From a virus (Duplodnaviria; Caudoviricetes), in IMG/VR virus record IMGVR_UViG_3300044904_000040, positions 1 through 55,955 of that record: a DNA stretch of 55,955 bases; one strand, written 5' to 3'. Below, in pieces: positions 38,008 through 54,473 of this stretch. Numbering within the stretch: position 1 is the stretch's first letter; every line of letters starts with the position of its first letter. The notes beneath the pieces are model-generated. The model ran no database searches, was not told the DNA's origin, and worked only from the letters and a program-made list of their open reading frames with translations. The translations under genes were made by a program, and so were the position numbers.

Positions 38008-38361
38008 ATGGCTCTGCCAACCGAAGTCGCGGCGGCCCTTTACGGGGCTGGCCGCATCCTCACCGCCAGCATCAAGCTGGGGTTGATCGACAAAATGACG
38101 GCGCGGCAAGTTGCCGTGCTGCTGGCGATCCCGCGGGTCCGAAAGGACTCGCTGGGCGCTACGCTGGTCGAAGACCTGGGTATCCCGCTGGGCTCTGTCT
38201 CACGGATCATTGATTCGCTGGTCGATCTTCGTCTGTTGGAAAAGTCCACCAATCCCGAAGATGCCCGGCGCATGGTTGTCGATTTCACGCCGGCCGGGGT
38301 GGACATGATGACAAAGATGGCCGCCACGAATTACCGTTTTCGAAAGGGAGACGTCGCATGA
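38008..38361 (+). CDS. MarR-family winged-helix regulator
   Basis: GSVSRIIDSLVDLRLL...NPEDARR..V.FTPAG. Confidence 0.85.
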   Translation: MALPTEVAAALYGAGRILTASIKLGLIDKMTARQVAVLLAIPRVRKDSLGATLVEDLGIPLGSVSRIIDSLVDLRLLEKSTNPEDARRMVVDFTPAGVDMMTKMAATNYRFRKGDVA

Positions 38362-38942
38362 CCGGCGCCCGCGGCAAGTGGAAGGAACGCAAGCCGCCCT
38401 TCGTGTGGGATGCTGCTGCCGATGAAAAGCTGAAGGCTCTGTGGCCGGACCCGAAAAACACGGTCAACAAGATCGGCGCGGTGTTCGGTGTCAGCAAGGC
38501 GGCTGTCTGCGGACGCGCTCGGCGGCTGCGGCTTGAACCGAAAGGGAGTGACAAGTTAAACCGGCTCTCCATGGCACAATGCGCCGATATCCTGGCGGCG
38601 AAACAGGGGAAAGATCCGCTGCCATTGACGCCGGCGCAAAGCCAGGAATTTGTCGATGTCGTGTTCAGCACCGCAGAGCCATGCCCAGCATTGCAAGAGG
38701 CGGCAGATCGATATGTCGAGCAATCGGCTGCGTCGCGCGTGTCGCTGATGGAGGCGATCAGCAAGGTTCTGCTGCGGCCGGTCAAGGCCTGCCAGTTCCC
38801 AATCAACAGGTCCAGGCCTTACCTGTTCTGCGAAGCGATGGCGCGAGACGGGTTTCCATACTGTCAGCACCATTGCGAGATTGCCTACATGTCTTTCGTG
38901 GCCAGGAATGGTGATGGCAAACAGGAGAGGGTTTCGGCATGA
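38358..38942 (+). CDS. gcrA: GcrA-family cell-cycle regulator homolog
   Basis: W...EKLKALW...IG..FGVSKAAVCGRARRLRL N-terminus; CQFP...FC...PYCQHH...AY C-terminus. Confidence 0.85.
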   Translation: MTGARGKWKERKPPFVWDAAADEKLKALWPDPKNTVNKIGAVFGVSKAAVCGRARRLRLEPKGSDKLNRLSMAQCADILAAKQGKDPLPLTPAQSQEFVDVVFSTAEPCPALQEAADRYVEQSAASRVSLMEAISKVLLRPVKACQFPINRSRPYLFCEAMARDGFPYCQHHCEIAYMSFVARNGDGKQERVSA

Positions 38943-39835: not shown

Positions 39836-40074
39836 GCGTGGAATACACTCGGGACGTGATGAGCTCGGCATTGACCGTGGCCATCGCTGAACTGCCCGAA
39901 GATTTTGCCGTTGTCCTGCTGGTTTTCCGACGGGACGGTGAAAAAGATCAAGTGAACTACATCGCCAACTGCGAGCGGCTGACCGTTCGTGACGCCATGA
40001 AAACGGTGTTGGATCGCTGGGCGCGGCGCGATGAAACAATCAAGGGGATATTGGATAATGGTCATGGAAAGTAA
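39832..40074 (+). CDS. Conserved small phage protein
   Basis: FAVVLLVF...NYIANCER motif. Confidence 0.6.
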   Translation: MSVEYTRDVMSSALTVAIAELPEDFAVVLLVFRRDGEKDQVNYIANCERLTVRDAMKTVLDRWARRDETIKGILDNGHGK

Positions 40075-40381
40075 GCCCGCGCCGGAACTTGTCGTCATCG
40101 TCGATGCGGTCAACGCGGTCAACGCGGTGGTGGAAACCAGCCTTGCATATCGGCGGAAGCTGAAAATGGATCAGGCAGTCGATAGCAGGGCTGAAGGGGA
40201 GGCTTGGCGGAAGGCGACGGACGCCTTGGCGGATCTCCGCAAGCCGAAAGATCCGCTGGCCGTGGCCCGGGTGGCTTTGGAGAAGCTGGCGTGCCTGGGA
40301 AATGAGCCTTACGTCGGGAACAGAGCCAGCATCATGATCGCTCGCCGGGCGCTTGATGAAATGGACGGAATCGGGAAATGA
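40064..40381 (+). CDS. Hypothetical protein
   Basis: Last ORF before the convergent terminator. Confidence 0.55.
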   Translation: MESKPAPELVVIVDAVNAVNAVVETSLAYRRKLKMDQAVDSRAEGEAWRKATDALADLRKPKDPLAVARVALEKLACLGNEPYVGNRASIMIARRALDEMDGIGK

Positions 40382-40415
40382 AAAGGGCGCCCTGTGATGG
40401 GGCGCCCTTTCTTTT
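40381..40415. terminator. Bidirectional rho-independent terminator
   Basis: AAAAGGGCGCCC-tgtgatg-GGGCGCCCTTTCTTTT between convergent operons. Confidence 0.85.
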
Positions 40416-40417
40416 GT

Positions 40418-40960
40418 CTACAGGATGAAGCGCACCAGCAACGCGCCGGCGGCACCGCCGAACAGCAAGGCGGCGATCCCGATCACCCACTTCGGCAAGA
40501 CGATGCCGGTCAACGACTTCACTTCAGCATCGGCCGAAGTTTCCAGCTTGCCAATCTCGGCGCCGATCGCGCTCACCACGATGCGGGCTTCGCTGGGCGG
40601 CGCGGCCGCGGCCATGGCGGACGTCACCGCCTGCGTGTGGATGGCGACGGCGCTTTCCAGTGCGCCTTCAATCGTAGCCAGGATGGACGACGCCCGGGCC
40701 GCTGGGGCGGCGTGGACGTGTGCCGTCACCAGTCGCGCCAGGGCGGTCATGGCGGTGGCTGGCATGGGCAGGGGATCGACTGCAGCGGTCACTGCTGGGG
40801 CGGCAGCGGCTTGGCTGGCGGGCTGCGCGGCATTGGCCGCGGCGTTGGCCGGCGCCTGCGCGGGGGTGGCCTGGGCGGCGGCTGCAGCTACCAGGGCAGC
40901 GTCAACGGAGGTCGGCGGGAAGGCGGATGCGGACGGCAACAGGGATACAGTTTCGGACAT
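40418..40960 (-). CDS. Ala-rich protein with C-terminal transmembrane helix
   Basis: AAGGAG RBS; last gene of the lysis cluster. Confidence 0.6.
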   Translation of the reverse strand: MSETVSLLPSASAFPPTSVDAALVAAAAAQATPAQAPANAAANAAQPASQAAAAPAVTAAVDPLPMPATAMTALARLVTAHVHAAPAARASSILATIEGALESAVAIHTQAVTSAMAAAAPPSEARIVVSAIGAEIGKLETSADAEVKSLTGIVLPKWVIGIAALLFGGAAGALLVRFIL

Positions 40961-40961
40961 G

Positions 40962-41444
40962 TCAGGCTCCTTGGTTTGTGGTGGGGTCGCCGCCGGACAG
41001 CATGAGGTCGCGCTCGGCGGCGCGGCGGCGGGTCAGGCCGGCAAGCATCTGTCCGCCGGCGTGGTTCCATAGCATCAGATCGTCGGCGGCGCCGTGGAAG
41101 TTGCCGGCGTTGAGGTAGCGCAGGATCCGCGAGCCCGCGAAATTGCCGGATCCGAGGTTGTAGACGAAATCTGCCAGGGCGGCTTCTTCCTCCGTCGTCA
41201 TCGGAACCTTCACGTCGGCCTCCACGGTCTGCAGGGCTGACCGCATCTCGTTCTCGGCCCATGTCTTCGCCGTCGCCTCGTCGATCGGCGGGCTGTCCGC
41301 GGTGATCCGGTTGCCGTCCGCATCACGGATCGAGCCATAGCCGATCGTCCAGATGCCAACGGGGTCTTGGTAGGGCGGGGATGAAAACCCCTCGAAGGGT
41401 ATGGCCAGATCGGCGGCCTTTTCCAGTGCGTCCTCGTTCATCAC
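40962..41444 (-). CDS. Endolysin, GH24 phage lysozyme
   Basis: FEG...Y.D.VGIWTIGYG, FVYNLG, GLTRRRAAE motifs. Confidence 0.95.
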   Translation of the reverse strand: MMNEDALEKAADLAIPFEGFSSPPYQDPVGIWTIGYGSIRDADGNRITADSPPIDEATAKTWAENEMRSALQTVEADVKVPMTTEEEAALADFVYNLGSGNFAGSRILRYLNAGNFHGAADDLMLWNHAGGQMLAGLTRRRAAERDLMLSGGDPTTNQGA

Positions 41445-41719
41445 TCAAATTCCCTTGCAGGAGTATCTGTCTGCACTTCGACGGGCGAAAAATCGGCGTA
41501 GTATTCGGCGCCGAGTTTGAAGTGTCGCGCGTGTTCTTCCTTCACCAGCGACAGTTCAATGCCGCCCGATGGGGTAGACGCATGGAAGTCCGGGTCGTAG
41601 GAAACGGACATTTTGATCGTCCGCATCTCGGCTGCGCTGCTCTTTCTGGTTTCGGGGTCGTAGGTGTGGCCGAGAGAGCGCGTGATGCTATCGACGCGAA
41701 ATTTGCAACGGATGTTCAT
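41441..41719 (-). CDS. Conserved phage hypothetical protein
   Basis: IRCKFRV...F..STPSG.IEL...F.LG.EYY.DF motif. Confidence 0.7.
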   Translation of the reverse strand: MNIRCKFRVDSITRSLGHTYDPETRKSSAAEMRTIKMSVSYDPDFHASTPSGGIELSLVKEEHARHFKLGAEYYADFSPVEVQTDTPAREFE

Positions 41720-41735
41720 GATTCTTTTCCTGGCT

Positions 41736-42266
41736 TCATTGTTTCGTGCTGACGGCACGCGCGTAATCCTGGCAGGCACCAAGCTGTGCCTTATACCGAT
41801 CGGCCCTGGCCGCTATGGCGACAAGAGCTTCTGCAGTTCCTCTGTCGATGATGGCCCGGCCGGCGGTGGATCCATGACCCACGCCGCCGGTGGAGGCGGC
41901 AGGGGGCACGCGACTGCCACCGCTTGCATTGGTGGCGACTGAGATTGACAACTGGCGAGTGCCAGCAACAACAGAGGCACGCAGATCGTCATTGGCCACC
42001 TGGGCATCGGTCAACTCCTTGAAATGTTCGGCATCGGATTGTGCAAGCTGGGCCTGCAGCTTTTGCTCCGTCGCAATGTGTTCGGCCTCGGCCACTGCGG
42101 CGGCATCAGACACGGCCTTCAGGTCGCGCTGGTGGGCGGCAATCTCGGTCTGCAGCGCCACTTCCTGCCAGTGATAGGTGGTGTATCCGCCCGTCCCGGC
42201 GCCGATCAGGAAGGCGCCAAGCGCGATCCAAAGGGTTGACATGCCGCCTGAAAGAAATGAAAGCAT
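41736..42266 (-). CDS. Inner-membrane spanin (Rz-like)
   Basis: N-terminal TM, coiled coil, LRASVVAGTRQL, C-terminal L.ACQ.Y. Confidence 0.85.
   Translation of the reverse strand: MLSFLSGGMSTLWIALGAFLIGAGTGGYTTYHWQEVALQTEIAAHQRDLKAVSDAAAVAEAEHIATEQKLQAQLAQSDAEHFKELTDAQVANDDLRASVVAGTRQLSISVATNASGGSRVPPAASTGGVGHGSTAGRAIIDRGTAEALVAIAARADRYKAQLGACQDYARAVSTKQ
41813..42007 (-). CDS. Outer-membrane spanin lipoprotein (Rz1-like), embedded in Rz
   Basis: LLLLALASC lipobox, Pro-rich CPLPPPPAAW; alternate frame inside Rz. Confidence 0.85.
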   Translation of the reverse strand: MPRWPMTICVPLLLLALASCQSQSPPMQAVAVACPLPPPPAAWVMDPPPAGPSSTEELQKLLSP

Positions 42267-42592
42267 CAGCTTGGTCCCCTATCTGCATCCTGTCGCGGAG
42301 GCACGTCGGCATAGGGTCTGGCGTCCGGTTCAGTCCGGCCCTTCAGGCCCAAGGCCGCGCCGGCTCCGGTAATCAGCAACGCCGCGCCCTGGCAAAATGC
42401 CAATCCGTCAAATGGTCGGCCTTTGCATAGCACAGAATAGATGCTGAGGAACATGAACACCGCGCCGGACAGCGCGAAGAATATCCTTACAATATCGAGT
42501 GTAATGTTGTCCTTTCCAGTGATGGCGCCAATCAACTTGGTCTTTCCATCCGGGGATACCCTGGCCGGACAATCAATGCAGGGTTCAGCCAT
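42266..42592 (-). CDS. Putative holin (2 TM)
   Basis: Two hydrophobic helices; lysis cluster. Confidence 0.6.
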   Translation of the reverse strand: MAEPCIDCPARVSPDGKTKLIGAITGKDNITLDIVRIFFALSGAVFMFLSIYSVLCKGRPFDGLAFCQGAALLITGAGAALGLKGRTEPDARPYADVPPRQDADRGPS

Positions 42593-42926
42593 GCCTCAAT
42601 GCCAACACTGCGATAACGCAACTGGCTATTCCGCACAAAATTGCACAGATCGATACCCATCGAGACAATATATCCTTGTCTTCGTTTCTGCTGGCGTGAG
42701 ATGCAGCGTTCTGAGAAGCCGTCGAAATTTCAAGATTGTGAACGGCAACAAGAACAACCTTCAGGTCTGTCCTGATATCATCTAGCCACTTTCGTGTTTC
42801 TCTTACCTCGGCTTCCATTTTGTGAACGCCTGATAAAGCAATTTTTAGGTCGCTCCTAAATTCTTCATGGACATGTCTTATCTCTTTAATCTCAGCTTCG
42901 AGAAGCGATACGCGTGTCTCCATCAT
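42585..42926 (-). CDS. Coiled-coil protein with C-terminal TM (holin/antiholin-like)
   Basis: Heptad repeats then hydrophobic tail; lower GC. Confidence 0.55.
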   Translation of the reverse strand: MMETRVSLLEAEIKEIRHVHEEFRSDLKIALSGVHKMEAEVRETRKWLDDIRTDLKVVLVAVHNLEISTASQNAASHASRNEDKDILSRWVSICAILCGIASCVIAVLALRHG

Positions 42927-42932
42927 CCCATC

Positions 42933-44063
42933 CTAGCCTGGAACCCACGTTATCGTAGGTGCGGTGCCAGTATAGGTTATAGTTACGGTATCAGTCTGCA
43001 AAAGCCTTACGCCACCAGACACGATCCCGGTGTTGATGGTGGTGCTGGCTCGGGTGAAGTCGATTTGCGACACGGTGCCGCCGGTCACATAGAGCGTGCC
43101 CTGGGCGCCGGCGACGTAGGCGAACGGGGAGCCGGTGGGGGTGACGGCCACCATGGCTGAGCCCGGGCCGGACGGGCCGTTGATGGTCATGTTGGGGCCG
43201 GTCCAGATGATCCAGTTATCAAACTCGGTCGGCTGGATGTTCTGCTGGTTGCCGGTCAAGTTGCTGGTAACGGTGATCCCGGTTTCAGCCGGCTCTGTGT
43301 TCAGTGTGCCGCCGGTGCCGCCGTTTGGGACGTGGAAAGAGTTGTAGCCGCCAAAGCCGAAATCAAATCCGGTTACAATGCCGTGCATGTGGCCAGCATC
43401 AGCAACGGTGAGGGTGTCAGTTTGCGCAAGTTCACTGCCGCCGGATACGCCCAACGTGGCGGCTATGCCGATGCTGGCAGTGGTGACGCGATTGGCGGCC
43501 GTGCCGCCCATGTTGTCCGCGCCCGCGGATACCCGGCCGCGCTTATCGGGGAGGTTGAATGTGGTGCTGCCGTCGCCGGCGCCGTAGGCCGTCTGGATGA
43601 CGGCGAATAGCGTGGCATAGGTGCTGCGGGAGACAGGCGCACCAGTGCAGAGCAACCAGCCTGGGGGAATGGCAGATGCCGGTCCTGAATAGGCCTTCTG
43701 CTCGCCGGTCAGCACCGCAACGCCGCTGGCCAAGCCTTGTCCGCCTGTGGTAGCGGAAATATCGCCAATGCCGGTGATGCCGTTTTCCGTCCAATATGGA
43801 TTGGTCGGCGGGTCGCTATCGGTCGGCGGCGACAGGACGAATGTGTAAGCATTGCCCTGGATCAGCCAGATATCGCACTGGCCGTTCGAGTCGAGAATGA
43901 TCGGGTTCGTGTTCGGTGTGCTGCCGGTGTATTCGGTATAAGTCTTCAGCTTGGTCGTGGTGCCGGACAGATAGGTGAACAGCTTGCCGCCGGAAAGCGG
44001 GGCGCCGTTCTGATTGAACTGGAACTTGGGAAGCGGAGCCTGGAATACGGGGGTTGCCATCAC
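42933..44063 (-). CDS. Tail fibre protein with head-binding-like N-terminus and tail collar domain
   Basis: NGAPLSGGKLFTY...NTNPIILDSNG; PPGWLLCTG..VSR.TY..LF...YGAGDGSTTFNLPD.RGR collar motif. Confidence 0.88.
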   Translation of the reverse strand: MMATPVFQAPLPKFQFNQNGAPLSGGKLFTYLSGTTTKLKTYTEYTGSTPNTNPIILDSNGQCDIWLIQGNAYTFVLSPPTDSDPPTNPYWTENGITGIGDISATTGGQGLASGVAVLTGEQKAYSGPASAIPPGWLLCTGAPVSRSTYATLFAVIQTAYGAGDGSTTFNLPDKRGRVSAGADNMGGTAANRVTTASIGIAATLGVSGGSELAQTDTLTVADAGHMHGIVTGFDFGFGGYNSFHVPNGGTGGTLNTEPAETGITVTSNLTGNQQNIQPTEFDNWIIWTGPNMTINGPSGPGSAMVAVTPTGSPFAYVAGAQGTLYVTGGTVSQIDFTRASTTINTGIVSGGVRLLQTDTVTITYTGTAPTITWVPG

Positions 44064-45409
44064 TCACCTTCCATTTCGAGCGCGTAGCCAAAGCTGTGCA
44101 ATTCTGGCAAACTTTTGATCACTTTGTCACCAATATCGGTTCGATACATTTTATTGGGGAAGTGGATCTTCTTTATCGCTCCATACACTTTTTTCTGCGC
44201 CTGGGCGACGGTTTTACCAAGGCCGCTTGTTACCAGAACGTATTCGCCAGTGGTCTGGTGGCCGAGTCCTTCAACAACCTTTCCGTCTTTCATCATCGGG
44301 CCTTTCCCCATCATGACGCAGGCCGGGTGGACCTGACGCCAAACCGAGTCCAGCCCGGTGATCGGGTTGCCTTCGACCATCTCGGGGGTGCTGGCGTTGT
44401 AGGGGTAGCGCGGCTGGGCCATCACCACGCCGATCGCCACGTCATTCGACACGCGAAGGCTGTCTTTGCCGTCCAACAGATCCCGCATCCATTGCGCAGG
44501 ATCTCCGCGGTGCGATGCCACCTGAATATAGAACGCCGGCCAGCCGCAACGCACGGTGAACTCGAACGGCCACGCCTTGCCCTTGTTGTCGATGCCAACG
44601 CCGACGGCAAAGTCGCCGCGGTGGCCGAGCGCAGCCAGGGCCGGCGCCATCGGCTTCAGGCACTCGTCCGCGAGCTTGTCAGCTTCGACATACTGACAGA
44701 CCGAGCCCTGCTCGCCGCAGTTCGGCCCGATGTCGCCGTTCATCAGGGGTTTGTGTTCGAAGCAAATCTGCCAGCGTTCGGGGAGAAAGCCGTCGGGTCC
44801 GAACCAGCCGGACACGCCGAATTCACAGGCCATGTCGATCTTCTCCTGTAGCATACATTGCCCCTTGAGGGTCGCGCCGCAGGCGATCTGGCGTTGGATC
44901 CAGCCAACCATGTCAGCCGGGTCTTTGCCCACATAGGTCAGGGATTTGTCGTCGGTGTCGCCCATCGGTTTGAACACCCATGCGCGATCTGACTTCCGGG
45001 CGAAGGCCTCGGCATCCTTCATCGAATTGAACATTTGATAGGGCGGCAACTCCATGCCAGCCGCCTTCATCGAGTCCATGCCAGCCGATCGGTTGATCTC
45101 AAGGTTGGCGCTGGCCACCGTCGGGGCAAAAATCTTGTATCCAAAATCTGACCTGTAGCGGTCGAAATCGTGGAGGAACTTGAAGTTGCCGCTAGTCCAG
45201 ATCAGGCCGTCTTTGGCCCAAGCCATGTGCGGCTTCCAATCATCCACGATCGTGATGCCCTTGAACCCCTCGCCGTCGCGTAGGGACTTTCCCGGCTTCG
45301 TCCATCGGAACCAGCGAACTTCGTGGCCGGCGGCGGCGCACCGCAGCGCGAAGTCCAGGCCAAGCGCCTCGGTATCGACCAGCAAGATTCTCACTTCGGT
45401 TCCTCCCAA
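44060..45409 (-). CDS. Divergent PurD (GAR synthetase)-fold ATP-grasp ligase; probable start GTG 45394
   Basis: VFKP, LQEKI, EHK.L..GD.GPN.GE.G, EFTVRCGWP, VVMAQPRYP, YRTDIG align with PurD motifs. Confidence 0.8.
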   Translation of the reverse strand: MGGTEVRILLVDTEALGLDFALRCAAAGHEVRWFRWTKPGKSLRDGEGFKGITIVDDWKPHMAWAKDGLIWTSGNFKFLHDFDRYRSDFGYKIFAPTVASANLEINRSAGMDSMKAAGMELPPYQMFNSMKDAEAFARKSDRAWVFKPMGDTDDKSLTYVGKDPADMVGWIQRQIACGATLKGQCMLQEKIDMACEFGVSGWFGPDGFLPERWQICFEHKPLMNGDIGPNCGEQGSVCQYVEADKLADECLKPMAPALAALGHRGDFAVGVGIDNKGKAWPFEFTVRCGWPAFYIQVASHRGDPAQWMRDLLDGKDSLRVSNDVAIGVVMAQPRYPYNASTPEMVEGNPITGLDSVWRQVHPACVMMGKGPMMKDGKVVEGLGHQTTGEYVLVTSGLGKTVAQAQKKVYGAIKKIHFPNKMYRTDIGDKVIKSLPELHSFGYALEMEGE

Positions 45410-45750
45410 TCGACCGTGCCGTATCGGTCGATTCCCATCTCATGAGCGATCATGTGGTCGATCAGGGCGGCGAAGCGATGCTGACGGATATAGGGGGCGC
45501 CGGGTGCGTCTCCTGGCTCGCCGTCGCCGGTGAAGGCCATGTCGAAGTCGTCAACGGCCTGCTGCGTGACGCCGGCGCTCTCGCAAAGCTTCATCTCGAT
45601 CAATTCGTGAATGGCGATCAAGAACTGGTCGTGCTGCGGCATTTCCTCGTTGATCTGGATCATGATCACGCCGTCGGGGGTGGTGAACCAGTCGCCGTCC
45701 GTCCGGTAGCGCATCTCGTCGGCCGGCAAAGTCTCGATCACGATTCTCAT
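45391..45750 (-). CDS. Small HExxE putative metal-binding protein
   Basis: RY.T.GDW...LIAIHELIE...GEPGD.P.APY..QH.FA. Confidence 0.7.
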   Translation of the reverse strand: MRIVIETLPADEMRYRTDGDWFTTPDGVIMIQINEEMPQHDQFLIAIHELIEMKLCESAGVTQQAVDDFDMAFTGDGEPGDAPGAPYIRQHRFAALIDHMIAHEMGIDRYGTVDWEEPK

Positions 45751-48506
45751 TGCTGCTGTCCTTTGTCGCCCATGATCATCTGCAGCCCTGGGTAAAGCAC
45801 GAATGGGGAAAGCGCGCCGCTGGGTTGTGCTAGGGATGGCTTCACAATCCCCACCATCTGCTGCTGAAAGCCTTTGTTCATCACGGCCGCGCGCGCCAGC
45901 GGGCGGATGCCGGCGGCGGCCATGAAGGCCGCGGCCTCGCCGTAGTCGCCTTTGATCAGCGATCGTGCGGCGGCCATTCCAGCGAAGGACACATCCAGCA
46001 CGCTCAAGCTCTCCACGGCGCCAAATTTCGTCGGAGTCTGGAAGGATCTTTCGAAATTGTTGGCGGCATCAGCGATCACCTTTAGGTTGCCGCCTAATGG
46101 CTTGCCGCGGTTCTGCAGGGCGGCCAGCCGGCGGGCACTCACTTGATGCGTGGCATCATTCAGAGCCGTCTCGATGTCGTAAGACTTGGCAATATTCACC
46201 CTGGCAGTGCGAACGTCATCCAACAGATGTCCCTGATTGGTCTTGGCGAGATTTCGTTCAATCAGTTCTTCCATAGCCTGTGCTGCGCCGCGTTGGGCTG
46301 TTCCGAGGGACAGGTCTTTGTAGGCCACCTGTTTGCCGCCGGGCGCGGATAGATTGGATACCGAATCCTGCCGCAGAGCCTTGATCCGTTCGATCATAGC
46401 GGTTGGACTGTAGGATGGCTTGGCCACCAGGTCCTTGAGCATCGCCTCCAATTCGGGGCTTTTCATCTGGCTGTATTCGGAGCCAGCAATTCGGGCCTCG
46501 CGTGCCAGCTTCGAAATATCGTCTTGGAATGTCTGGTCGATGGAGAAGGGCTGCTGGATGGACTTCAGCCGGCCATAGGCCAACCCTTGCATGTCGCGGT
46601 AATGCTGCAACATGTCCTTGTCGATCAAAGTCTTCTCGGGGAAGCCAAGCTCTCGGGCCGCAAGGCCATCGGTTACGGCCTGATTCTTCGCGCTGGCGAA
46701 CTGCTCCATTTTAATCTTGCCGCCAGCGCCGGCCATGATGTTTGGCAGGCTCACCTTGGCGATACTGCCTTCAGTGGCCTCGGCCGGGGGCAGGACATAT
46801 CCCACGCCGATCGCATCCTTGGCCGCTTGGCTGGGATTGATCTTGATGGCGTTGTAGAACATTCGCGGTCCGGCAAATGGCAGGACCGATGCGAGCGCGC
46901 CGGCAGTGAACTGCACCCATGGCGGGGCGCCCGATTCCTTGGCGATCGTGGAGGCTGTTGCTGAGAGGCCGCCGGCCACCATCTGCACATTGGGTTTTTC
47001 GGAAAGCGATACGGCAACGGCCTTCACCAGCGGATTGATGGCGGTTTCTGCCAGTGCTTTCGCTGCGGCTGCGCCGCTGAGTGCGTTGCCGACGCCTGCG
47101 CCTGCTGCCTGGGCTACACGCTCCGTCGCTGTCTGGGGGCGCGGTAGGCCAAGATGGTCGAGCGCCATGTCGGTGATCGTGCCAAGGGTGGCGCTCTGCG
47201 GCAGGCCAACATGGGGGGCGATCGCGTTGTAAGCTGTGGTGCCAAGGTCGGTTGCGCCGGCGAGCGCCAGTCCAGCCAAAGCGCCTGGGGGCCCAGCCAA
47301 CGCGCCACCGATGCCGCCGGCTGTCGCATAGGGAGCAAGCCCGCGCCCCAACGATCCGGCCACGCGGGCGGCGGTGGTGCGGCCGACATCTTCCGGGGCG
47401 CCCTCGGTTATGCCGCCCGGCGTTATTGGTGGGGCTGTGGGCATAGGCTCGGGGACGCCCATGATGAACTGGTCGCTGGGCGGGACTTCGGCCGCCTGGG
47501 CGCCTGGGATCAACGCATTGCCAACGGACGATGCGATCCGGCCCATCAAGGATCCGCCCTCGCCGGGCTGCGGCTGCACGTCGGATGCGGGAATGAATTT
47601 GTGGGGCACGACCTTGCCAGTGGTGCCGACAATCTCGGTGGGGTTGCCTTCGCCCTCTTTGCGGATCGCCACGGGGATCATGTCCACGCCGGCTTCCTGC
47701 GCCAGCAATGCGCGGTGGCGGCCGTCTTGATCTGTGACCTGGGCGGTGCTGCCATCCACCTTCAGGTTGAGGGAGGGGATTTCTTCCACCTTATCGCCGC
47801 GGGCAACCGATTTGGCGATCGAGCGGCCAGCCGGGGTTTGGAAGGCGTCTTTGCCGAGCGGGGGGGTCAGCGCAAGATAGTCCTCCGGTGGCATATAAAC
47901 GACGTCGGTTCCTTCGTCGGCCTCATGCTCCCGCAGTGCGTAATCGCTGAACTGATATTTGTCGGTGCCGATCCGCGGGCCGCCGCCGGCCTTGCCCTGC
48001 CACATCACCGACGCCGGCCGTTCGAATACCCGCTTAAACGAGTCCTCGGCCTCCGACACCGGCACATTTTCGTCTGTGAGGCGCTTGCGGAGCGAGGGAT
48101 ACTGTTCGCGCAATTCCTTGTCGGCAAAGGCGAACTGCGCGTCGGGACTGTTCGGGTCCAGGCCTTCCTTCTTCGCGAAGGCCTGCAGTTGATCCCATCG
48201 CTCGTTGTGGTGCTGGAACAGGCCGTGGCTGGTGCCATTGTCGCCGGTGTCCAGCGGGTTGCCGCCCGATTCCCGCATCACATTCTGCGCAACGCCGGCG
48301 GCGCCGTTGGGCGAATATCCAAGAGCGATCCCCTTCTGAACAAGCTGGTCGTAATCCAGCTTCATCGGTTTGGCCGGCGCGGCGGGACGGGGGGCCGGTG
48401 TGGGGGCGGGTGTCTGCGATGGCGGCCGGACGGTCACAGTCGGCGCCGAGAACATGACCGGGGCGGTCGGCATCGGCTCGGGCTCGCCAAGAATGAACTC
48501 GCTCAT
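45747..48506 (-). CDS. Internal virion/ejection protein with muramidase (phage tail lysozyme-like) and ParB-like domains
   Basis: AAGVAQNVMRESG...GDNGTSHGLFQ; DQDGRHRALLA...IPV; Gly/Ala-rich membrane-active segment. Confidence 0.75.
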   Translation of the reverse strand: MSEFILGEPEPMPTAPVMFSAPTVTVRPPSQTPAPTPAPRPAAPAKPMKLDYDQLVQKGIALGYSPNGAAGVAQNVMRESGGNPLDTGDNGTSHGLFQHHNERWDQLQAFAKKEGLDPNSPDAQFAFADKELREQYPSLRKRLTDENVPVSEAEDSFKRVFERPASVMWQGKAGGGPRIGTDKYQFSDYALREHEADEGTDVVYMPPEDYLALTPPLGKDAFQTPAGRSIAKSVARGDKVEEIPSLNLKVDGSTAQVTDQDGRHRALLAQEAGVDMIPVAIRKEGEGNPTEIVGTTGKVVPHKFIPASDVQPQPGEGGSLMGRIASSVGNALIPGAQAAEVPPSDQFIMGVPEPMPTAPPITPGGITEGAPEDVGRTTAARVAGSLGRGLAPYATAGGIGGALAGPPGALAGLALAGATDLGTTAYNAIAPHVGLPQSATLGTITDMALDHLGLPRPQTATERVAQAAGAGVGNALSGAAAAKALAETAINPLVKAVAVSLSEKPNVQMVAGGLSATASTIAKESGAPPWVQFTAGALASVLPFAGPRMFYNAIKINPSQAAKDAIGVGYVLPPAEATEGSIAKVSLPNIMAGAGGKIKMEQFASAKNQAVTDGLAARELGFPEKTLIDKDMLQHYRDMQGLAYGRLKSIQQPFSIDQTFQDDISKLAREARIAGSEYSQMKSPELEAMLKDLVAKPSYSPTAMIERIKALRQDSVSNLSAPGGKQVAYKDLSLGTAQRGAAQAMEELIERNLAKTNQGHLLDDVRTARVNIAKSYDIETALNDATHQVSARRLAALQNRGKPLGGNLKVIADAANNFERSFQTPTKFGAVESLSVLDVSFAGMAAARSLIKGDYGEAAAFMAAAGIRPLARAAVMNKGFQQQMVGIVKPSLAQPSGALSPFVLYPGLQMIMGDKGQQQ

Positions 48507-50842
48507 TGCTTCACCATGTTTTTCAAGCTGTTGATCGGCTTCGGGTCATTGAATCCTTGATCCAATGCCTCCCGGAACGCCGCCTTGGCATTCGGAAATT
48601 CGACATGTCCGCTCGGGCCGTCTTTGTCGAAATAAGTCATCCGCCATTTGCCAGGGGTATCAAGGTCTTTTGATACCAGAACGGCGCGTTCTGTACCTGG
48701 CTTGCTGAATTTCAGCGGAGCGCCTTCTTCGGCCCATTTTTCAGCCAAGGCTGTTTTTCGTGCAATGTTGGCCTGAGCGGCCTCAAGCAGTTTTAGAAAT
48801 TCTTCATCAGTCGTGCCTTTGATGGCCGCCGCTGTCTCTGATGTCTCCTTCGGCTCGCCCGCCTTCGCAAACATATCCCTTTCAGGTTTGGTGGCTGGTT
48901 TGGCGAACAGGCCTTCATCCGGCTTCGCCTGCTCTGCCTTCGCGGTCAGCCCGCCGCGGCCGGCTTGATCTCTGGCCGCCTGGGCCTGCTTTGCTGACGG
49001 CTCCATGCCGGGCATGGCGATCTGGTTCGGGTCGTTGACGATCGTCGGCTCGGGGGCGGCCGGCGCGGCTTTCTCCACCGGCATTTCACCGAACAGGTCG
49101 GCGCCGGTGGGGCGCGGCGGCTCGGGCGTCTCGCTGAGATCCGTCGACTCCGAATGATCCCACTTGCCTTCGTTCTGCGCGCTGATATCGGCCAGGGCAT
49201 TGACCGGCTTCGGGGCGGGCGGGGCTTCCTCGGCATTGGCCGGCAACTTCTTCGCGGCGGCGACGAACGCCTTGGTGACGGAGGCCATGCTCTTGCCGGC
49301 GGTGAGGTCTTTGGCCGCCTGGGTCAGAAGATCCGACATGCCGCCGCGTTTGGTGGCCTCGGCTTCCAACCGGGCAATCAGCATTTCGTTCTCGGCGCGG
49401 GCCTTGATGTTGCCTTCGGTCGCCAGCTTGTTCCCGGCTTCGGTCAATGCTTCTTCGCCAGTGACGGCCGCCTTGAACACGTTCTTCTGTGCCCGCAAGC
49501 TGCGCAGCGTGTTGTCCAGCACGCGGGCACGGGGCACGAACAGCGGGACTGCCTTAGCCGTGCTGCCAGTGCCGAACAGGTTGCCCTGGCCTTCATCGCC
49601 CGGGCCGGCCTGAAGGAACCCGGATCCCTGAATGTCATCGATCAACAGCTTGGTCTGCTGGTCGGTGAGCGACTCGGTCTTCTGCAGCACCTTCATGATC
49701 GCGGTTTGCTGGGCCGGATCCTTCACCATCTTGCCGACAAGGATCCCCTGCTCGGGACTCACGGCGCCGGTCTTCACCATTGACCACGCATCGTCGCCAA
49801 GGGACGCCAGGGCGCGGCCTTTCTGCACCATCGGCTCGTTCGGGGGCAGTTGGGGCAGCTTCAGATTGGGGCCGAACTCTTTGGCCGAACGCAGGATGTT
49901 CGCGGCATCCATTGGCGTGCCGCTGCCTTCGGTGATGTTCTGGTAGGCGCCAAGCGCCTTCACGTAGTCGGCCGGGTATCCGTCGGCTTCCTTGAAAACC
50001 TTGGCGTGAAGCTCAATCCCCTCCTGGCCACTGGCCTCGGCGCGCTTGGCGAGGTCAGTTCGCTGGTGGCCGTTCACCACGATGTTCTCACCGGCCTTGT
50101 TCTGCCAAACTACGATCGGAGAGGCGAGGTTCGGTTCGAACACGGTAGACGCGCTCAAGCGGCCGGTGACGCCGCGGGCGTCGGACGCCTTGTATTGCAT
50201 GAGGTCCGGGCGAAGGGTCAATTGATCGGGCCGGAACTTCACGATATCAGCGGCCGGCGGTGGCTCGGCTGGGGCCGCGGGCGCTGGCTCTGTAGGGGCT
50301 GCGGCCGGGCCCGGGGTGGTTGGTGCGGCTTCAGTCGCCGGGGCTGCTGGCGTGGCCAGACGCGGGGCCGCAGGGGGCGGTGCGGCGGGCTCGGCCGGGG
50401 TGAAAGTCAACTCGCGTGGCGGCGGTGCTGCAAGGGCTGGTTGGCCGGGCTGTGGCGGGCGATTGAACTGCGGCGGGACGTTGCCGACTCGTTCGGCCTC
50501 TACCAGCGGCGGCAGCACAGTGGGTCGGCCGAGGGACTTTACCGCACCGGGGAACAGAGAGATCGCCGCTTGGAGGTCTTGGACGTGCTGGGGGTTGTTG
50601 GGGTCGAACTGGTCGATCGGCCGGGTCCAACCGCGGATTGGTCCGCGAAGGATCTCTGGCAACGCCAATCCCATCTCGCCGGTCTTCACGTCCCGGCTGA
50701 TTGGCAGGATTTGTCCATACTCGGTGCCGGGCTTGTCCTCCAACAGCGGACGCTGCTCGGGCGTGAAGGTCAACGGCGCGGCTGTGAAGGTCAACGGCGG
50801 CGGGGCGCTCGGGGCGGGCGTGAAGGTGAGTGCATCGGCCAT
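48503..50842 (-). CDS. Internal virion/ejection protein with ParB-like domain (polyvalent-protein type)
   Basis: P..MQYK...PIVVW...IVVNGHQR..LAKR...NITEGSG..DAA. Confidence 0.7.
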   Translation of the reverse strand: MADALTFTPAPSAPPPLTFTAAPLTFTPEQRPLLEDKPGTEYGQILPISRDVKTGEMGLALPEILRGPIRGWTRPIDQFDPNNPQHVQDLQAAISLFPGAVKSLGRPTVLPPLVEAERVGNVPPQFNRPPQPGQPALAAPPPRELTFTPAEPAAPPPAAPRLATPAAPATEAAPTTPGPAAAPTEPAPAAPAEPPPAADIVKFRPDQLTLRPDLMQYKASDARGVTGRLSASTVFEPNLASPIVVWQNKAGENIVVNGHQRTDLAKRAEASGQEGIELHAKVFKEADGYPADYVKALGAYQNITEGSGTPMDAANILRSAKEFGPNLKLPQLPPNEPMVQKGRALASLGDDAWSMVKTGAVSPEQGILVGKMVKDPAQQTAIMKVLQKTESLTDQQTKLLIDDIQGSGFLQAGPGDEGQGNLFGTGSTAKAVPLFVPRARVLDNTLRSLRAQKNVFKAAVTGEEALTEAGNKLATEGNIKARAENEMLIARLEAEATKRGGMSDLLTQAAKDLTAGKSMASVTKAFVAAAKKLPANAEEAPPAPKPVNALADISAQNEGKWDHSESTDLSETPEPPRPTGADLFGEMPVEKAAPAAPEPTIVNDPNQIAMPGMEPSAKQAQAARDQAGRGGLTAKAEQAKPDEGLFAKPATKPERDMFAKAGEPKETSETAAAIKGTTDEEFLKLLEAAQANIARKTALAEKWAEEGAPLKFSKPGTERAVLVSKDLDTPGKWRMTYFDKDGPSGHVEFPNAKAAFREALDQGFNDPKPINSLKNMVKQ

Positions 50843-52689
50843 CAGGCGGCCGGGGCGTTATACGTCGCCGCTGGGACAAGCTGGTTGCCGCGCTTCATCC
50901 ATTTGCTGCCGTCGCTGGCGTTGAACACACGGCCGTCCGGGTCGCCTTCGTGACCTGGGGGCACCGGGTAAGCTGTCGGCGCCGCCGATGCCGCCGGCGC
51001 CGATGGTGCTGCCGGTTGCGTTCCGGCCGCCGGCGCGGTGGGGGGCGCCGGCTGCGTGCCGCTGCGCATCAACGGGATAAATGTGTTGTTCGGGCCGGGC
51101 ACACCAACGCGGCCGTCTGGCGCCTGGATTGCATTTGGATGCGCGGCTTTGGCAGCGGCCAGATCATCGCCGCCTCTCATCGGCACCGGCCCGGTTGGGG
51201 CAGTCGGCTTGTCCGGACCGTGGGTTTGAACTCCGGGGGGAGTGCCGTGGACGTCCTTTTTGATAGCATCCACTTCCTCGTTGTAGCCCTTGATCTTCAA
51301 CCCCATGTCGGCTTTGAGCGTGTCCACGATGGCGGGGATCTGGTCCGCTGTGGTGCCTGGGGGGATCAATGACAACGCGAGGTTTCGGGCGCTGTCAGTC
51401 GATGCTTGGGCGCCAGTTGAACCGCTCAACACCTTCGCATATTGGTCGAGCGCCGTGATCAACTGCGCCTCGTATGGCAGCACGTCAGTTCCGCCGGTCG
51501 CAGTCGAACCAGTCCGCGCCCATTTGGTGAAAAACGGCATGTGTAGCGGCTCGGGCGTCTTCGGGATCATCGTCACCATCTTGTCCAGCGCAGCGATCGT
51601 GCCCTTCTCGTAGCCTTCGGCCGCATTGCGAATGGCAGTGACCTTTCCAAGCGACGCGGTATCAGCCTTCAGCGTTGCCCGGCCTTCGATATAATCGTTC
51701 ACATCATGGCCGTTCGGGTGATCGGCATCGACATCGGCTTTGGCAAGTTTGGTCGCTTCCTCCAACACTTGATCGATCATGTATTGGTTGCGGGTGCCGC
51801 CGGGCATCTGGCCCGTGCGCAGATAGGTCCGTGCGCTAAAGTCCGCGGCATCTGGCGACAACACGGCTGCGGCCTTCTTAACTCCCTCTTTTGCCTGTGC
51901 GACGCCGCCGGCGCTGGCCGCTGCATCACGGTTGGTGACGTCACGACGGATCTGCGCACGCTGGGCCGGTGAAACCGGATACCCTTGCTTGGCTTCCTCA
52001 TCGGCCACTTGCTCAGATGTCAGCGTTTCGATATCGCGCGCCTTATCGCTAGCCATGGTTTCGGCCGGGGTTTTCGGTGGTTTTGCCGCCCGGGCCTCGG
52101 CGTCGGCCGTCCTCAATTCAGCGTTCTTCTCCTGCCAGGACAGATTCGCACGCGCCCTGGCGGGGTCGAACTTCGGGGACATCTGCGAATGGAAATCTGG
52201 ACCGGCAACACCTGATGCCTGGAATGCATCAAGCTGGTCCGTGTAATAGGCTTGGGCCTGCTGCTGCGCCTCATCAGGGGAATGTCCATCGTGAATCGCT
52301 TGGTCGTAAAGCGAGAGAGAGGTTCGGCCAATCTCCATTGCTTCCTTGGTCGCGGCTGACAGCAATTTCGATTTTTGGGCGAATTGCTTATCCTGCATAC
52401 CCTGGAGCTGCACGCTCTGATTCACACCAGCCTGCATGAGCGCCATCCCGGCCTGCGGATTGATGGCCAGGATCTCCTTCATGGCGTTGGTGGTTGGCTG
52501 TCCCGTGGCAGGATCGACAGCGCCCGGCTTTTTCAGAATGTCGTTCAGCGCATTTGTCCGGGCGGCCACGTCCTTCTGCTGCTGCAGTTGCATGGCGTCT
52601 TGCTGGATGGCCATCATCTTCTGCGGATCGGGGCCGATCTGCATCTGCGTGTTGGTAGACATCGGGATTTGGGCGAAAACACCGCTCAT
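50842..52689 (-). CDS. Internal virion/DNA ejection protein
   Basis: Gln/Ala-rich helical protein directly after the gp7-like gene. Confidence 0.7.
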   Translation of the reverse strand: MSGVFAQIPMSTNTQMQIGPDPQKMMAIQQDAMQLQQQKDVAARTNALNDILKKPGAVDPATGQPTTNAMKEILAINPQAGMALMQAGVNQSVQLQGMQDKQFAQKSKLLSAATKEAMEIGRTSLSLYDQAIHDGHSPDEAQQQAQAYYTDQLDAFQASGVAGPDFHSQMSPKFDPARARANLSWQEKNAELRTADAEARAAKPPKTPAETMASDKARDIETLTSEQVADEEAKQGYPVSPAQRAQIRRDVTNRDAAASAGGVAQAKEGVKKAAAVLSPDAADFSARTYLRTGQMPGGTRNQYMIDQVLEEATKLAKADVDADHPNGHDVNDYIEGRATLKADTASLGKVTAIRNAAEGYEKGTIAALDKMVTMIPKTPEPLHMPFFTKWARTGSTATGGTDVLPYEAQLITALDQYAKVLSGSTGAQASTDSARNLALSLIPPGTTADQIPAIVDTLKADMGLKIKGYNEEVDAIKKDVHGTPPGVQTHGPDKPTAPTGPVPMRGGDDLAAAKAAHPNAIQAPDGRVGVPGPNNTFIPLMRSGTQPAPPTAPAAGTQPAAPSAPAASAAPTAYPVPPGHEGDPDGRVFNASDGSKWMKRGNQLVPAATYNAPAA

Positions 52690-52690
52690 A

Positions 52691-53425
52691 TCAGAACATC
52701 CCTGCAAGGCTAGACATACCGCCAGCGCCGCCGCCGCCTCCGAACAATCCAGACAACATGCTCATCAGGCCATTGCCTCCGCCGGCTGCGCCAGCACCTG
52801 CCGCGGAAGTGCCCTGCTGCTGCTGCTGGGCACCTGTGAGATTGTTCAGCGCCGAGGACATGATATTGCCCTGCGCCATCGAATTGCCTGCCGCAGCCAG
52901 TCCCGAATTAATCGTGTTCTGGCCAACCTGATTGGCCATGTTGGCGCCAAACGAGCCGAGACTGTTGGCTGCGGTCTGGCCGCTACTCGCAACGCCGCCG
53001 AGATTGCCGAGATAACTCTGCCATCCCTGGTTTGCGAGCCCGCTGCCATAGGATTGAAGCGCCTTCAAGGCATTTCCGCCGCCGACGCCGCCGGTGTTTG
53101 CAGTGGCGTTCTGGACGCTGTTCAAGCCCTGCTGAAGCTGGAATTGATAGCCTGGGGATGCCTGGAATGATGCGGGGTTGATGGACCCGGCGCCGCCGCT
53201 TGTTCCAATGCCAAGCGCCGATTGAAGGGCGCTGAAAGCGTTCTGCCCTCCGGTGATGTAGGGTTGCAGGTTCCCAGCGGTTTGATTGTATTGATTTTGC
53301 TCAATATTTGAGGCGTTCAGAAGGGCGCCTTGCTCATCCTTCGCAGCGCCTTTGGCTGCATTTGAACTGATAAGAGCGCTGCCGACTGTGCCAAGCGCCA
53401 TCGCGCCCATTGTGAAAAACGGCAT
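52691..53425 (-). CDS. DNA transfer (ejection) protein, P22 gp7-like
   Basis: LQPY...G, PGYQFQLQQG, G.ALKALQ.YG.GLA.Q motifs; Gly/Ala/Gln-rich. Confidence 0.8.
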   Translation of the reverse strand: MPFFTMGAMALGTVGSALISSNAAKGAAKDEQGALLNASNIEQNQYNQTAGNLQPYITGGQNAFSALQSALGIGTSGGAGSINPASFQASPGYQFQLQQGLNSVQNATANTGGVGGGNALKALQSYGSGLANQGWQSYLGNLGGVASSGQTAANSLGSFGANMANQVGQNTINSGLAAAGNSMAQGNIMSSALNNLTGAQQQQQGTSAAGAGAAGGGNGLMSMLSGLFGGGGGAGGMSSLAGMF

Positions 53426-53531
53426 TGTTCAATCCCCCGGCCATGCCGGTCAAAGGTGTTGAAGATGCCCGCACAAGGAGTCGGTGGTGACGTCTATATC
53501 ACAATCGGCAGTTGACAATCCAGCGGGCGGG

Positions 53532-54113
53532 TTAAACCGCCACTAGCCTCGACGCCATCTCATCATCTATGTAGCCGGACAGGTCGCCGCCGCGGGCCTG
53601 CACCGCTTTCCATACCCGGACCATGTCAGCCTGGATGTTCAACCGCTGCATGATCTCGATCTGCGGCAGGCTAATTCGCGCGCCGGGCATTAGGTGTTCC
53701 AAGCAACCAGCGACGACGTGATTGTTGGTGAGGTCTGCGAAGTTCACGCGCATAACGCCATCGGCCGCACTTACGGCGCCCAAGCGTTCGTGCATCAGGT
53801 CACAGATGTTGGACCGGCGGATACCGATGCCTTCGAGCGAGGTTAGGACTTCGCCGGCGGGGCGTTCGATGATCAAAACCTGGGGGTGCCATTGGTCGAT
53901 AATCTCGCGGATCTTGAAGCTGAACCCGGAGTCCGAAATGCCGCACCATTTCTGCCGCGCCGAATCCCAAAGCGATGCGGCGGCCTGCCATGTCCGATAA
54001 TCTGAGGACGGTTCATGGTAGCAGATCGAGCCGTCTACCGTGCTGCACATCGCTGCAAACCAAGCCGTCCGCGAGCGCGGCAGGCCGGTGATCAGGTAAG
54101 GAAGCGCCATCAC
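53532..54113 (-). CDS. Sulfotransferase-like / P-loop protein
   Basis: YLITGLPRSRTAW...CYHEP resembles the PAPS 5'-phosphosulfate-binding loop. Confidence 0.7.
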   Translation of the reverse strand: MMALPYLITGLPRSRTAWFAAMCSTVDGSICYHEPSSDYRTWQAAASLWDSARQKWCGISDSGFSFKIREIIDQWHPQVLIIERPAGEVLTSLEGIGIRRSNICDLMHERLGAVSAADGVMRVNFADLTNNHVVAGCLEHLMPGARISLPQIEIMQRLNIQADMVRVWKAVQARGGDLSGYIDDEMASRLVAV

Positions 54114-54451
54114 GACACCAAAGTTCCGGCAAGGGGTGAAACGGTCACGACGCCCGTCGTGTCCGCGAGGAATTGATAGGTGCCGCCGGCGCCCAACACC
54201 GGCAAGGCGACGTCTTGATGGGTGTTGGGGGCGATGGGCTCGGCGTTCATGAAGCAGTTGCCGACGCCAGGACTTCCGGCGGACGGAACCGCATAGGCGG
54301 TCACTGCATGGCCAGCGACGTCGGTGTTCGTCATTCGCACCACGCCGCCGCTGAGAATGATGGTGGCGGGAGTGCCCGGCACGGTGAGCAACGATACCGC
54401 ACCGGCGGTCAACTGCGTGGGATTGAAAAGCGTGGCGGTTTGCACGGGCAT
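54110..54451 (-). CDS. Small virion structural protein
   Basis: Beta-rich 113 aa protein; GAAGGA RBS. Confidence 0.7.
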   Translation of the reverse strand: MPVQTATLFNPTQLTAGAVSLLTVPGTPATIILSGGVVRMTNTDVAGHAVTAYAVPSAGSPGVGNCFMNAEPIAPNTHQDVALPVLGAGGTYQFLADTTGVVTVSPLAGTLVS

Positions 54452-54473
54452 AATGCCGATCCTTCGGTAGTGG

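Follow-up and report, generated by a model that had tools for sequence, protein, structure and literature searches.

Introduction

Some ATP-grasp enzymes that form amides are paired with a hydrolase. Tubulin tyrosine ligase (TTL) has such a partner in the MATCAP metallo-carboxypeptidase, and glutathionylspermidine synthetase (GspS) has one in an amidase. Here we propose an arrangement of the same kind for two overlapping genes in a 55,955-nucleotide stretch of viral DNA, IMG/VR record IMGVR_UViG_3300044904_000040, the whole of which we call the window. One gene encodes a predicted PurD-fold ATP-grasp protein (the ligase) and the other a 119-aa protein with an HExxE motif (the HExxE protein). 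As in TTL/MATCAP and GspS, an amide-forming ATP-grasp enzyme would be paired with a hydrolase, and a fold search with the HExxE model weakly matched MATCAP itself. However, TTL and GspS have no homology to the ligase beyond the superfamily, and the pairing described here, of a putative ligase with a putative hydrolase, is facultative.

The described enzyme most like the ligase is PurD, the glycinamide ribonucleotide (GAR) synthetase (EC 6.3.4.13; TIGR00877; PDB 2YW2, 1GSO, 2QK4 and 5VEV). The two have the same four-domain fold over their full length and have in common the ATP, Mg and acyl-phosphate residues (LE..K/R, K147, E196, E/D-H-K, E283, R287 and YRxDIG). The ligase gene, however, lies in a viral late operon and not among pur genes. 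Another phage-encoded ATP-grasp protein without a defined substrate is that of the LUZ24-like phages, for which a novel metabolite or a peptide modification has been proposed as the product. A published gene table places that cassette among early/replication genes, with a 291-aa ATP-grasp, an amidoligase, a GATase and GGCT-like neighbours (PMC3890496). The window ligase instead has ejection proteins, a fibre and lysis genes as neighbours and none of those of the LUZ24-type cassette, and the PurD-type domains are specific to its family. It also differs from the ATP-grasp enzymes of graspetides and other ribosomally synthesized and post-translationally modified peptides (RiPPs), since its modelled fold is of the PurD type and not the RiPP ligase type. 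The literature searched contained no account of a PurD-like ligase belonging to a phage virion module.

Our preferred reading, to which we give a probability of roughly 0.45, is that the ligase is an active ATP-grasp amide ligase that uses an amine other than phosphoribosylamine (PRA), probably a cationic one, and acts late on a target that ends up in the virion or ejection apparatus, with the HExxE protein as a facultative hydrolytic partner.

Results

The ligase and HExxE genes lie in one late operon

The two genes are as follows.

44060..45409, minus strand: PurD-fold ATP-grasp ligase gene; the mechanically called open reading frame (ORF) has 449 aa from TTG 45409, and the likely real start is GTG 45394-45392, giving 444 aa
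45391..45750, minus strand: HExxE (HELIE) protein gene, 119 aa; predicted small beta-sheet plus three-helix, zincin-like fold

The original prediction had placed a 449-aa and a 119-aa ORF at these positions, had read a series of PurD motifs in the first and HELIE in the second, and had described the HExxE, ligase and fibre genes as translationally coupled. Both ORFs are present, and so are all the motifs: the ligase translation contains VFKPMGD, LQEKID, FEHKPLMNGDIGPNCGEQG, EFTVRCGWP and YRTDIG, and that of the 119-aa protein contains IHELIEMK. The coupling is borne out by overlaps of start and stop codons at all three junctions. The stop of an upstream 919-aa gene overlaps the HExxE start (caATGAga), the HExxE stop overlaps the GTG at 45394 (GGGAGGAaccgaaGTGAga), and the ligase stop overlaps the fibre start (gaGTGATGg). 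Thus 4-nt start/stop overlaps flank both genes on either side, and both belong to one late operon. A promoter and terminator scan of 40000-55955 came out at chance (6 versus 4.6 expected; 14 versus 16.3) and is neutral on the operon.

The start of the ligase has to be corrected. Because GTG 45394 sits in a GTGA overlap, is preceded by GGAGG at 45406-45402 (7 nt upstream) and gives a protein that begins MRILLV, as the aligned homologues do, it is most likely the true start in place of TTG 45409.

The ligase is predicted to have the complete PurD fold

With Pfam, the ligase matched GARS_C above the cut-off (4.1e-14) and GARS_A below it (4.6e-4), and GARS_N was unmatched. All ten matches in a sequence search of the PDB were PurD proteins, the best being 5vev at 7.6e-21. 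We then used an alignment of 59 full-length, intein-free family members (alignment A2), picked from about 270 listed family hits. Its profile matched 11 PurD PDB entries over their full length (best 2.2e-53), and the AlphaFold2 model built from it had a mean predicted local distance difference test score (pLDDT) of 96.0. When this model was searched against the PDB with Foldseek, ranks 1-15 were all GAR synthetases (E 3.3e-30 to 4.6e-25, template modelling (TM) score 0.68-0.76, about 450 aligned columns), and the next folds, from 4.4e-17, were biotin carboxylase and PurK. This agrees with the PurD motif order read earlier from the sequence, and on the model the ligase is a full four-domain (N-B-A-C) PurD-fold ATP-grasp protein. 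The resemblance to PurD greatly exceeds chance. A BFVD search returned no PurD-like viral structure (best TM 0.44), and the ligase matched no PHROG family.

The family has lost the substrate residues of GAR synthetase

Against TIGR00877, the NCBIfam purD equivalog, the ligase scored 78.6 bits, where the cut-off is 288 and a Salmonella PurD control reached 627.2. Residues were compared in an alignment of 16 family members with four real PurDs (annotated or from bacterial-contaminant records) and in a hidden Markov model alignment to the Aquifex PurD 2YW2. According to a published account, Aquifex PurD binds ATP through K103, K143, E185, E192 and K214, glycine through D212, R287 and E292, and Mg through E100 (PMC8880213). 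For human PurD, a second account assigns R13/E14 of the GGREH loop to a sulfate/phosphate site and the PRA ribose, makes the GDPE Asp (D295) the general base that binds the PRA amine, also points to R385, and says that the B-loop GLAAGK is conserved in all GAR synthetases (PMC2978367). The GDPE Glu is described as a glycine ligand (PMC2978367, PMC8880213). The SGGR Arg of the C domain is a candidate PRA phosphate site.

We found that the nucleotide side of this site is kept in the 59 family members. E104, the Mg ligand (Aquifex E100), is present in 59 of 59; R107 (K103) in 56, K147 (K143) in 58, Q188 in 58, E196 (E192) in 57, E218 (D212) in 57, K220 (K214) in 55, E283 in 57 and R287 (R287) in 57. 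The ligase thus carries the signature of active ATP-grasp enzymes, namely the ATP-binding lysines, the Mg-binding Glu and the catalytic Arg of E-x-N/T-x-R.

The substrate side is lost. The GGREH loop is absent and is replaced by D-T-E-A-L-G-L-D in the window ligase; the N domain of the family has no PGN or GPE motif; and GLAAGK is replaced by G-D-T-D-D-K (family consensus G-D-x-x-D-K). The position of the GDPE Asp holds W or Y in 53 of 59 members and that of the GDPE Glu holds A, T, L or S, while the SGGR Arg has become Tyr in 47 of 59. The Mg-binding Asn (N285) is Thr in 55 of 59, giving EFT where PurD has EFN. The family has gained a conserved Glu (E233, 54 of 59), and compared with PurD the ligase has an extra C-domain insertion and a C-terminal extension, LPELHxxGYAxxMEY.

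The missing GxGGREH loop and the EFT for EFN, both pointed out in the original prediction, hold in the alignment to the four real PurDs and to PDB PurDs. Among the ORFs of the window, PHROG and Pfam scans found no purine-pathway family other than the ligase. Because the equivalog cut-off is missed, the PRA residues and part of the glycine residues are lost and pur neighbours are absent, it is well supported from sequence that the ligase is not a GAR synthetase. We therefore agree with the earlier view that it is not a purine auxiliary gene.

The ligase family is large, mostly viral and in part interrupted by inteins

A word-indexed search with the ligase gave 788 proteins at E<=1e-3, and the best 120 of the 788 were all 62-96% identical to it; several relatives are labelled "phosphoribosylamine--glycine ligase" by their source. 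The exhaustive search over 50% representatives gave 1817 proteins at E<=1e-3; 645 of them reached <=1e-10 and 141 reached <=1e-30. IMG/VR holds at least 577 ligase loci (577 of the 600 pattern matches listed encode relatives), and the ESM Atlas clusters of the family, one with 1171 members, are 79-87% viral. By these counts the family is large and mostly viral. The 50,697 deposited phage records contained one family-level match, the unannotated MW202796.1 at 40% identity; the other 12 matches were 23-29% identical, and those with an annotation were bacterial purD. One metagenome-assembled genome (MAG) held a copy of the ligase at 580 bits plus a separate 159-bit match, taken to be the genome's own PurD, and 400 other sampled genomes of that phylum gave 0 matches at E<=1e-70.

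Each of the 18 long ligase homologues that we examined carries an insertion at GPN|T, GE(Q/M)G|T or EF(T/S)|x, three points that all lie within catalytic loops. LAGLIDADG_3 was present in each of the four that were scanned. The catalytic loops are thus strongly constrained. Because inteins persist at sites that do not tolerate imprecise loss, their distribution argues for a ligase that is active and needed. One further protein, P0195, was considered as a long ligase without an intein and was rejected as a miscalled or frameshifted ORF; its N-terminal 395 aa are Gly/Ala/Ser-rich and match none of the neighbour clusters, and its C-terminus is garbled.

The ligase gene is linked to ejection and fibre genes

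The ligase and HExxE genes stand in the right-end gene series of the window, which runs hydrolase, phrog_598 gene, 621-aa, 779-aa and 919-aa genes, HExxE, ligase, Collar fibre and lysis genes. The neighbours closest to the pair are these.

52691..53425, minus strand: DNA-ejection protein, 244 aa (phrog_598); opens the conserved ejection block
50842..52707, minus strand: protein of 621 aa; homologous to the gene that stands second in the conserved ejection block (cluster 1 of the related loci)
48503..50842, minus strand: virion-module protein, 779 aa; ParB-like/phrog_10691 region, belongs to the upstream ejection block
45747..48506, minus strand: internal/ejection protein, 919 aa; N-terminal Phage_lysozyme2 (phage tail lysozyme) domain, homologues upstream of the ligase in related loci
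42933..44063, minus strand: tail fibre with a Collar domain, 376 aa; its N-terminal ~100 aa are common to the fibres downstream of the ligase in related loci

We fetched 108 IMG/VR loci with 86 distinct ligase sequences, and 81 of the 86 could be analysed. Upstream of the ligase we found the phrog_598 ejection gene in 45 loci and a gene of about 489 aa in 46, followed by a large variable protein. In 37 of the 81 loci the gene next upstream of the ligase encodes a large internal protein of cluster 3; in others the large protein comes from a different cluster, one of which carries transglycosylase/internal-virion PHROGs. Downstream, fibre cluster 0, with its shared N-terminal ~100 aa, was present in 44 loci and at position +1 in 42, and other fibre-like genes fill the slot elsewhere. 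The upstream series is a fixed one, and the ligase almost invariably follows three genes for ejection/internal proteins and precedes the fibre gene. Identity to the window in the closer loci is 58-67% for the ligase and 30-55% for the neighbouring virion proteins. The placement of the ligase among ejection and fibre genes, which had been noticed in the window, is therefore strongly confirmed across the 81 loci.

Pfam scans of small neighbours covered 69 of the 81 cluster representatives, leaving aside the HExxE cluster and 11 singletons, mostly below about 110 aa or cut by the locus end. Decarboxylase families were found in 0 of the 69; the matches were to lysis genes, DUF5675, Tlde1 and the K1-lyase C domain only.

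In the window, the 779-aa protein (48503-50842) matches phrog_10691 at 2e-31, the C-terminal part of phrog_21 and, weakly, a ParB-like family. It may contain a nuclease-like domain.

Linkage of the HExxE gene to the ligase is one-sided

A quick IQ-TREE tree of the ligase family, with support from the Shimodaira-Hasegawa-like approximate likelihood ratio test (SH-aLRT), was built from 82 rows. Sixteen had a HExxE gene, 58 had none despite at least 1.5 kb of upstream DNA, and 8 were uninformative; 15 of the 16 fell in one clade of 18 rows (SH-aLRT 99). We looked at the linkage from the HExxE side as well. Relatives of the HExxE protein are encoded by 270 of 335 IMG/VR pattern matches; we retained 80 of these loci, each with flanks of 3.5 kb. 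A PurD-like ATP-grasp gene lay within that distance in 60 of the 80, which correspond to 47 of 65 distinct HExxE sequences, and 37 of the 47 linked HExxE genes were within 60 nt of it. The 18 HExxE genes without a ligase were near Hc3, terminase or primase genes.

The partner ligases are of three subtypes and occur in both gene orders. Those of the window type are mostly directly downstream of the HExxE gene, and those of an intermediate type mostly directly upstream, with the order reversed. A divergent type of about 425 aa has no Pfam match and is 15% identical to the window family (hhalign probability 99.9, E 2e-33). It keeps LE..R, the Lys, E-x-K and (D)-x-T-x-R-x-G-x-P and is without the GPNTGEMG loop. 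Divergent ligases lie directly beside HExxE genes in several loci (L135:3878-5161, L141:3570-4871, L151:3893-5152, L163:3890-5170 and others), and these pairs too are placed among virion or packaging genes. Because the linkage survives strong ligase divergence and a changed gene order, the gene arrangement indicates that ligase and HExxE protein form a functional module. The pairing is one-sided: HExxE genes are largely tied to ligases, ligases are mostly without a HExxE gene, and the HExxE protein is a facultative partner.

The original prediction had spoken of a ligase/metallo-hydrolase pair and had asked whether the ligase co-occurs with the HExxE gene and the ejection genes across phages. 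The pair stands when viewed from the HExxE side (47 of 65 near a ligase) and does not when viewed from the ligase side (16 of 74 informative loci); for the neighbourhood as a whole, it is the ejection/fibre linkage and the HExxE-side linkage that hold. A complex prediction for the ligase (alignment A2) and the HExxE protein (alignment A1) had a score of 0.00 and a mark of 0.32, which has no bearing on whether the two bind.

The HExxE protein has a predicted zincin-like arrangement

The HExxE protein matched nothing in Pfam, PHROG, NCBIfam or PADLOC. A model built from 27 sequences (pLDDT 92.8) has three strands, a long helix with H48-E49-x-x-E52 and two further helices, and the named structure neighbours in the Atlas are ImmA/IrrE (TM 0.62) and a SprT-like protein (TM 0.56). 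All 66 distinct sequences share nine residues without exception: G19, H48, E49, E52, D70, G80, P86, Y87 and H91. The motif is H48-E49-x-x-E52 rather than the HExxH of zincin metallopeptidases, and the invariant H91 and D70 are candidate ligands. The minimal zincins (ImmA/IrrE Peptidase_M78 and PprI, 8SLN; CapP, 7T5T; SprT/Wss1; selecase; YbeY/AQ_1354) have the same three-stranded sheet, long H-E-x-x-(ligand) helix and later His helix as the model. Unlike them, the window protein has HExxE in place of HExxH and no Pfam or PHROG match, and at 119 aa it is smaller than most. The model thus weakly suggests a zincin-like fold with a predicted metal site in which Glu stands for the second His; metal binding and hydrolysis would follow from this arrangement.

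A search for longer HExxE proteins gave eight of 268-336 aa, three with an HNH domain and one with a resolvase domain. None of the eight was a fusion to an ATP-grasp domain, an absence that the tool deems weak evidence. The four with an HNH or resolvase domain (P0288, P0289, P0292 and P0294; 268-326 aa) may be homing-endonuclease fusions or merged ORF calls.

Discussion

We propose that the ligase descends from PurD, would no longer make glycinamide ribonucleotide and would act as a carboxylate-amine ligase. It would bind ATP and Mg2+ as PurD does, activate a carboxylate to an acyl-phosphate and allow an amine other than PRA to attack, yielding an amide. In its predicted pocket, to which D12, H29, W58, E233, W290 and Y390 would belong, two phosphate-binding arginines and the Asp general base are lost, and a conserved Glu, a Trp/Tyr and a Tyr are gained. 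Because two arginines are lost and acidic and aromatic residues are gained round the amine site, the amine is more likely to be cationic or neutral, such as a lysine side chain, a protein N-terminus, a polyamine-like amine or an amino sugar. The ligase would be made late, its translation coupled to that of the ejection/internal proteins and tail fibre, and is a fixed feature of the ejection-fibre block in a large uncultured lineage of podoviruses with P22-like coat proteins. Because of this timing, coupling and fixed position, its target may be destined for the virion or the ejection apparatus and would most likely be a protein. The HExxE protein most likely hydrolyses or trims, either readying the acceptor or reversing or editing the amide. 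The narrower proposal, in which the ligase writes an amide modification on an ejected or virion protein or is itself capsid cargo, with the HExxE protein as its processing or erasing partner, is distinctly doubtful.

Several observations weigh against the late virion-directed ligase and its hydrolytic partner. The HExxE gene is missing from 58 of the 74 informative ligase loci. In Xanthomonas phage PBR31, which by its coat protein (42.7%) is the closest relative in culture, the genes for internal proteins A, B and C adjoin that for the tail spike with no ligase in between, and the N-terminus of its spike is 44% identical to that of the window fibre. Because PBR31 has the same order and the shared spike N-terminus and no ligase, basic virion assembly and fibre attachment do not require the ligase, which is a lineage-specific addition to a conserved module and not a universal assembly factor. 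The slot between the internal proteins and the spike is presumably one in which P22 keeps accessory genes. For the HExxE protein, Foldseek with the model gave nothing at E<=1e-3 (top rows SPRTN and PprI/IrrE, best E 0.12). VIA-align against 48,161 chains gave PprI (Z 5.7), AQ_1354 (5.3) and CapP (5.2), then YbeY, selecase, SprT/Wss1 and MATCAP (Z 4.1), all below the Z of 8 under which, by the warning of the tool, a match may reflect a common arrangement. The second zinc ligand of HExxH is replaced by Glu. The hydrolase label is thus a weak one, drawn from a weak fold match (Z 5.7) and the invariant H-E-x-x-E...D...H set, with no family assignment.

The main rival to this reading is a small-molecule amide ligase, which we regard as a serious contender, although on the whole unlikely. 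Here, late in infection, the enzyme would couple a small acid to a free cationic amine such as a polyamine or agmatine. Its product would be packaged with the DNA or would reprogram the host, and the HExxE protein would be the corresponding amidase; glutathionylspermidine synthetase/amidase provides the model logic. The shift of the pocket from Arg-rich to Glu/Trp/Tyr-rich fits such an amine, PurD itself acts on small molecules, and PBR31 does without the ligase. However, no amine-making enzyme lies near the ligase in the clade (0 of the 69 representatives with a decarboxylase family), the fixed ejection-fibre position of the gene is left unexplained, and the closest named folds to the HExxE protein are protein-cleaving zincins. 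The same position could point to a cargo enzyme, packed in the capsid with the ejection proteins, with or without the HExxE protein, to modify a host target at the start of infection. In its favour, the ligase gene is the last of the ejection/internal-protein block and translationally coupled to it, and the internal proteins of the block bear lysozyme and transglycosylase domains. Gene position alone is weak evidence, though, and the model is a compact, fully folded protein of 50 kDa with no disordered targeting tail (pLDDT 98 through the C-terminus), so we consider cargo improbable. ATP-grasp ligases are also known to act on cell-wall precursors, and the ligase gene stands between the gene for an ejection protein with a lysozyme domain and those for the fibre and lysis, as might be expected if the enzyme modified the envelope or wall by attaching a residue to precursors of peptidoglycan or of a surface polymer, for superinfection exclusion or to help lysis or entry. 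Since the ligase is nearest to PurD and not of the Ddl/Mur type, with biotin carboxylase and PurK as the next folds, and since no other wall-precursor enzymes are linked to it, a role in the wall is very unlikely.

The two remaining explanations are highly implausible. A true PurD, acting as an auxiliary metabolic gene that boosts purine supply, would agree with the overall fold, with the source labels of relatives and with the listing of purD as a phage auxiliary metabolic gene in viromics papers (PMC11097641; bioRxiv 10.1101/2024.07.12.603268). Against it stand the score of 78.6 bits for a 288-bit cut-off, the loss of the GGREH loop, the B-loop, the GDPE Asp and Glu and the SGGR Arg, the lack of other pur genes in the window and the second, PurD-level match elsewhere in the MAG that carries the ligase. 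Equally far from what we see is a PurD-fold protein that has lost its catalysis and is retained for a role in structure or assembly. The Thr for the Mg-binding Asn and the replaced glycine-rich B-loop could be signs of a dead enzyme, but each of the residues for ATP, Mg and acyl-phosphate persists in 55-59 of the 59 members, the Thr of (E/D)xTxR is conserved even in the 15%-identical subtype, and inteins target the catalytic loops. As for anti-defence, raised earlier as an example of what a small molecule could serve, no PADLOC defence or anti-defence model matches the ligase or the HExxE protein.

What is at stake goes beyond this locus. Public pipelines name the proteins of this family phosphoribosylamine--glycine ligase, and in viromics papers purD is counted with viral metabolic genes or with protein clusters of purine metabolism (PMC11097641; bioRxiv 10.1101/2024.07.12.603268). 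Where such calls belong to the window ligase family, viral purine metabolism would be overstated because the family has lost the PurD substrate sites. A ligase fixed at the end of the ejection block in hundreds of uncultured podoviruses, with inteins in its catalytic loops and a small putative metal protein often alongside, points to new chemistry at the virion or infection-initiation stage. If the narrower proposal above is true, the pair would amount to a post-translational writer/eraser system for the ejection apparatus, widespread and specific to phages, that we have not met in descriptions of tailed phages. Both proteins are small and their models are of high confidence, which makes biochemical substrate screening directly feasible.

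Other features of the window

The IMG/VR record is classed as linear and about 71% complete, and nearly all of its genes are on the minus strand. PHROG and Pfam matches show a P22-type podovirus layout with a large terminase, P22_portal, a scaffold, a P22-like coat protein and Hc3-like tail proteins. The record ends truncate both end genes, 3-542 (minus strand) and 54684-55955 (minus strand). Judging by gene order, these ends may adjoin in the phage, and some sequence between them may be absent from the record; simple inspection of a circular joining gave no continuous frame.

The portal gene (10968-14318, minus strand, 1116 aa) has its P22_portal match split around a LAGLIDADG_3 plus terminase-like (Hint-type) insert and by this sequence pattern appears to carry an intein. 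The regions 38008-38942 (plus strand) and 32081-32665 (minus strand) hold a MarR-type regulator, a homologue of the cell-cycle regulator GcrA and a DNA methyltransferase (phrog_799); because of the GcrA homologue, the gene content suggests an alphaproteobacterial host. Two large ORFs, 21093-23771 (minus strand, 892 aa) and 36298-38004 (plus strand, 568 aa), matched nothing in Pfam or PHROG at the thresholds applied. The position ahead of the first ejection gene is occupied in the window by a phrog_10855 "hydrolase" (53532-54113, minus strand) and in PBR31 by a gene annotated as an acetyltransferase (record 16846-17217), so that in both phages it holds a small enzyme-like gene.

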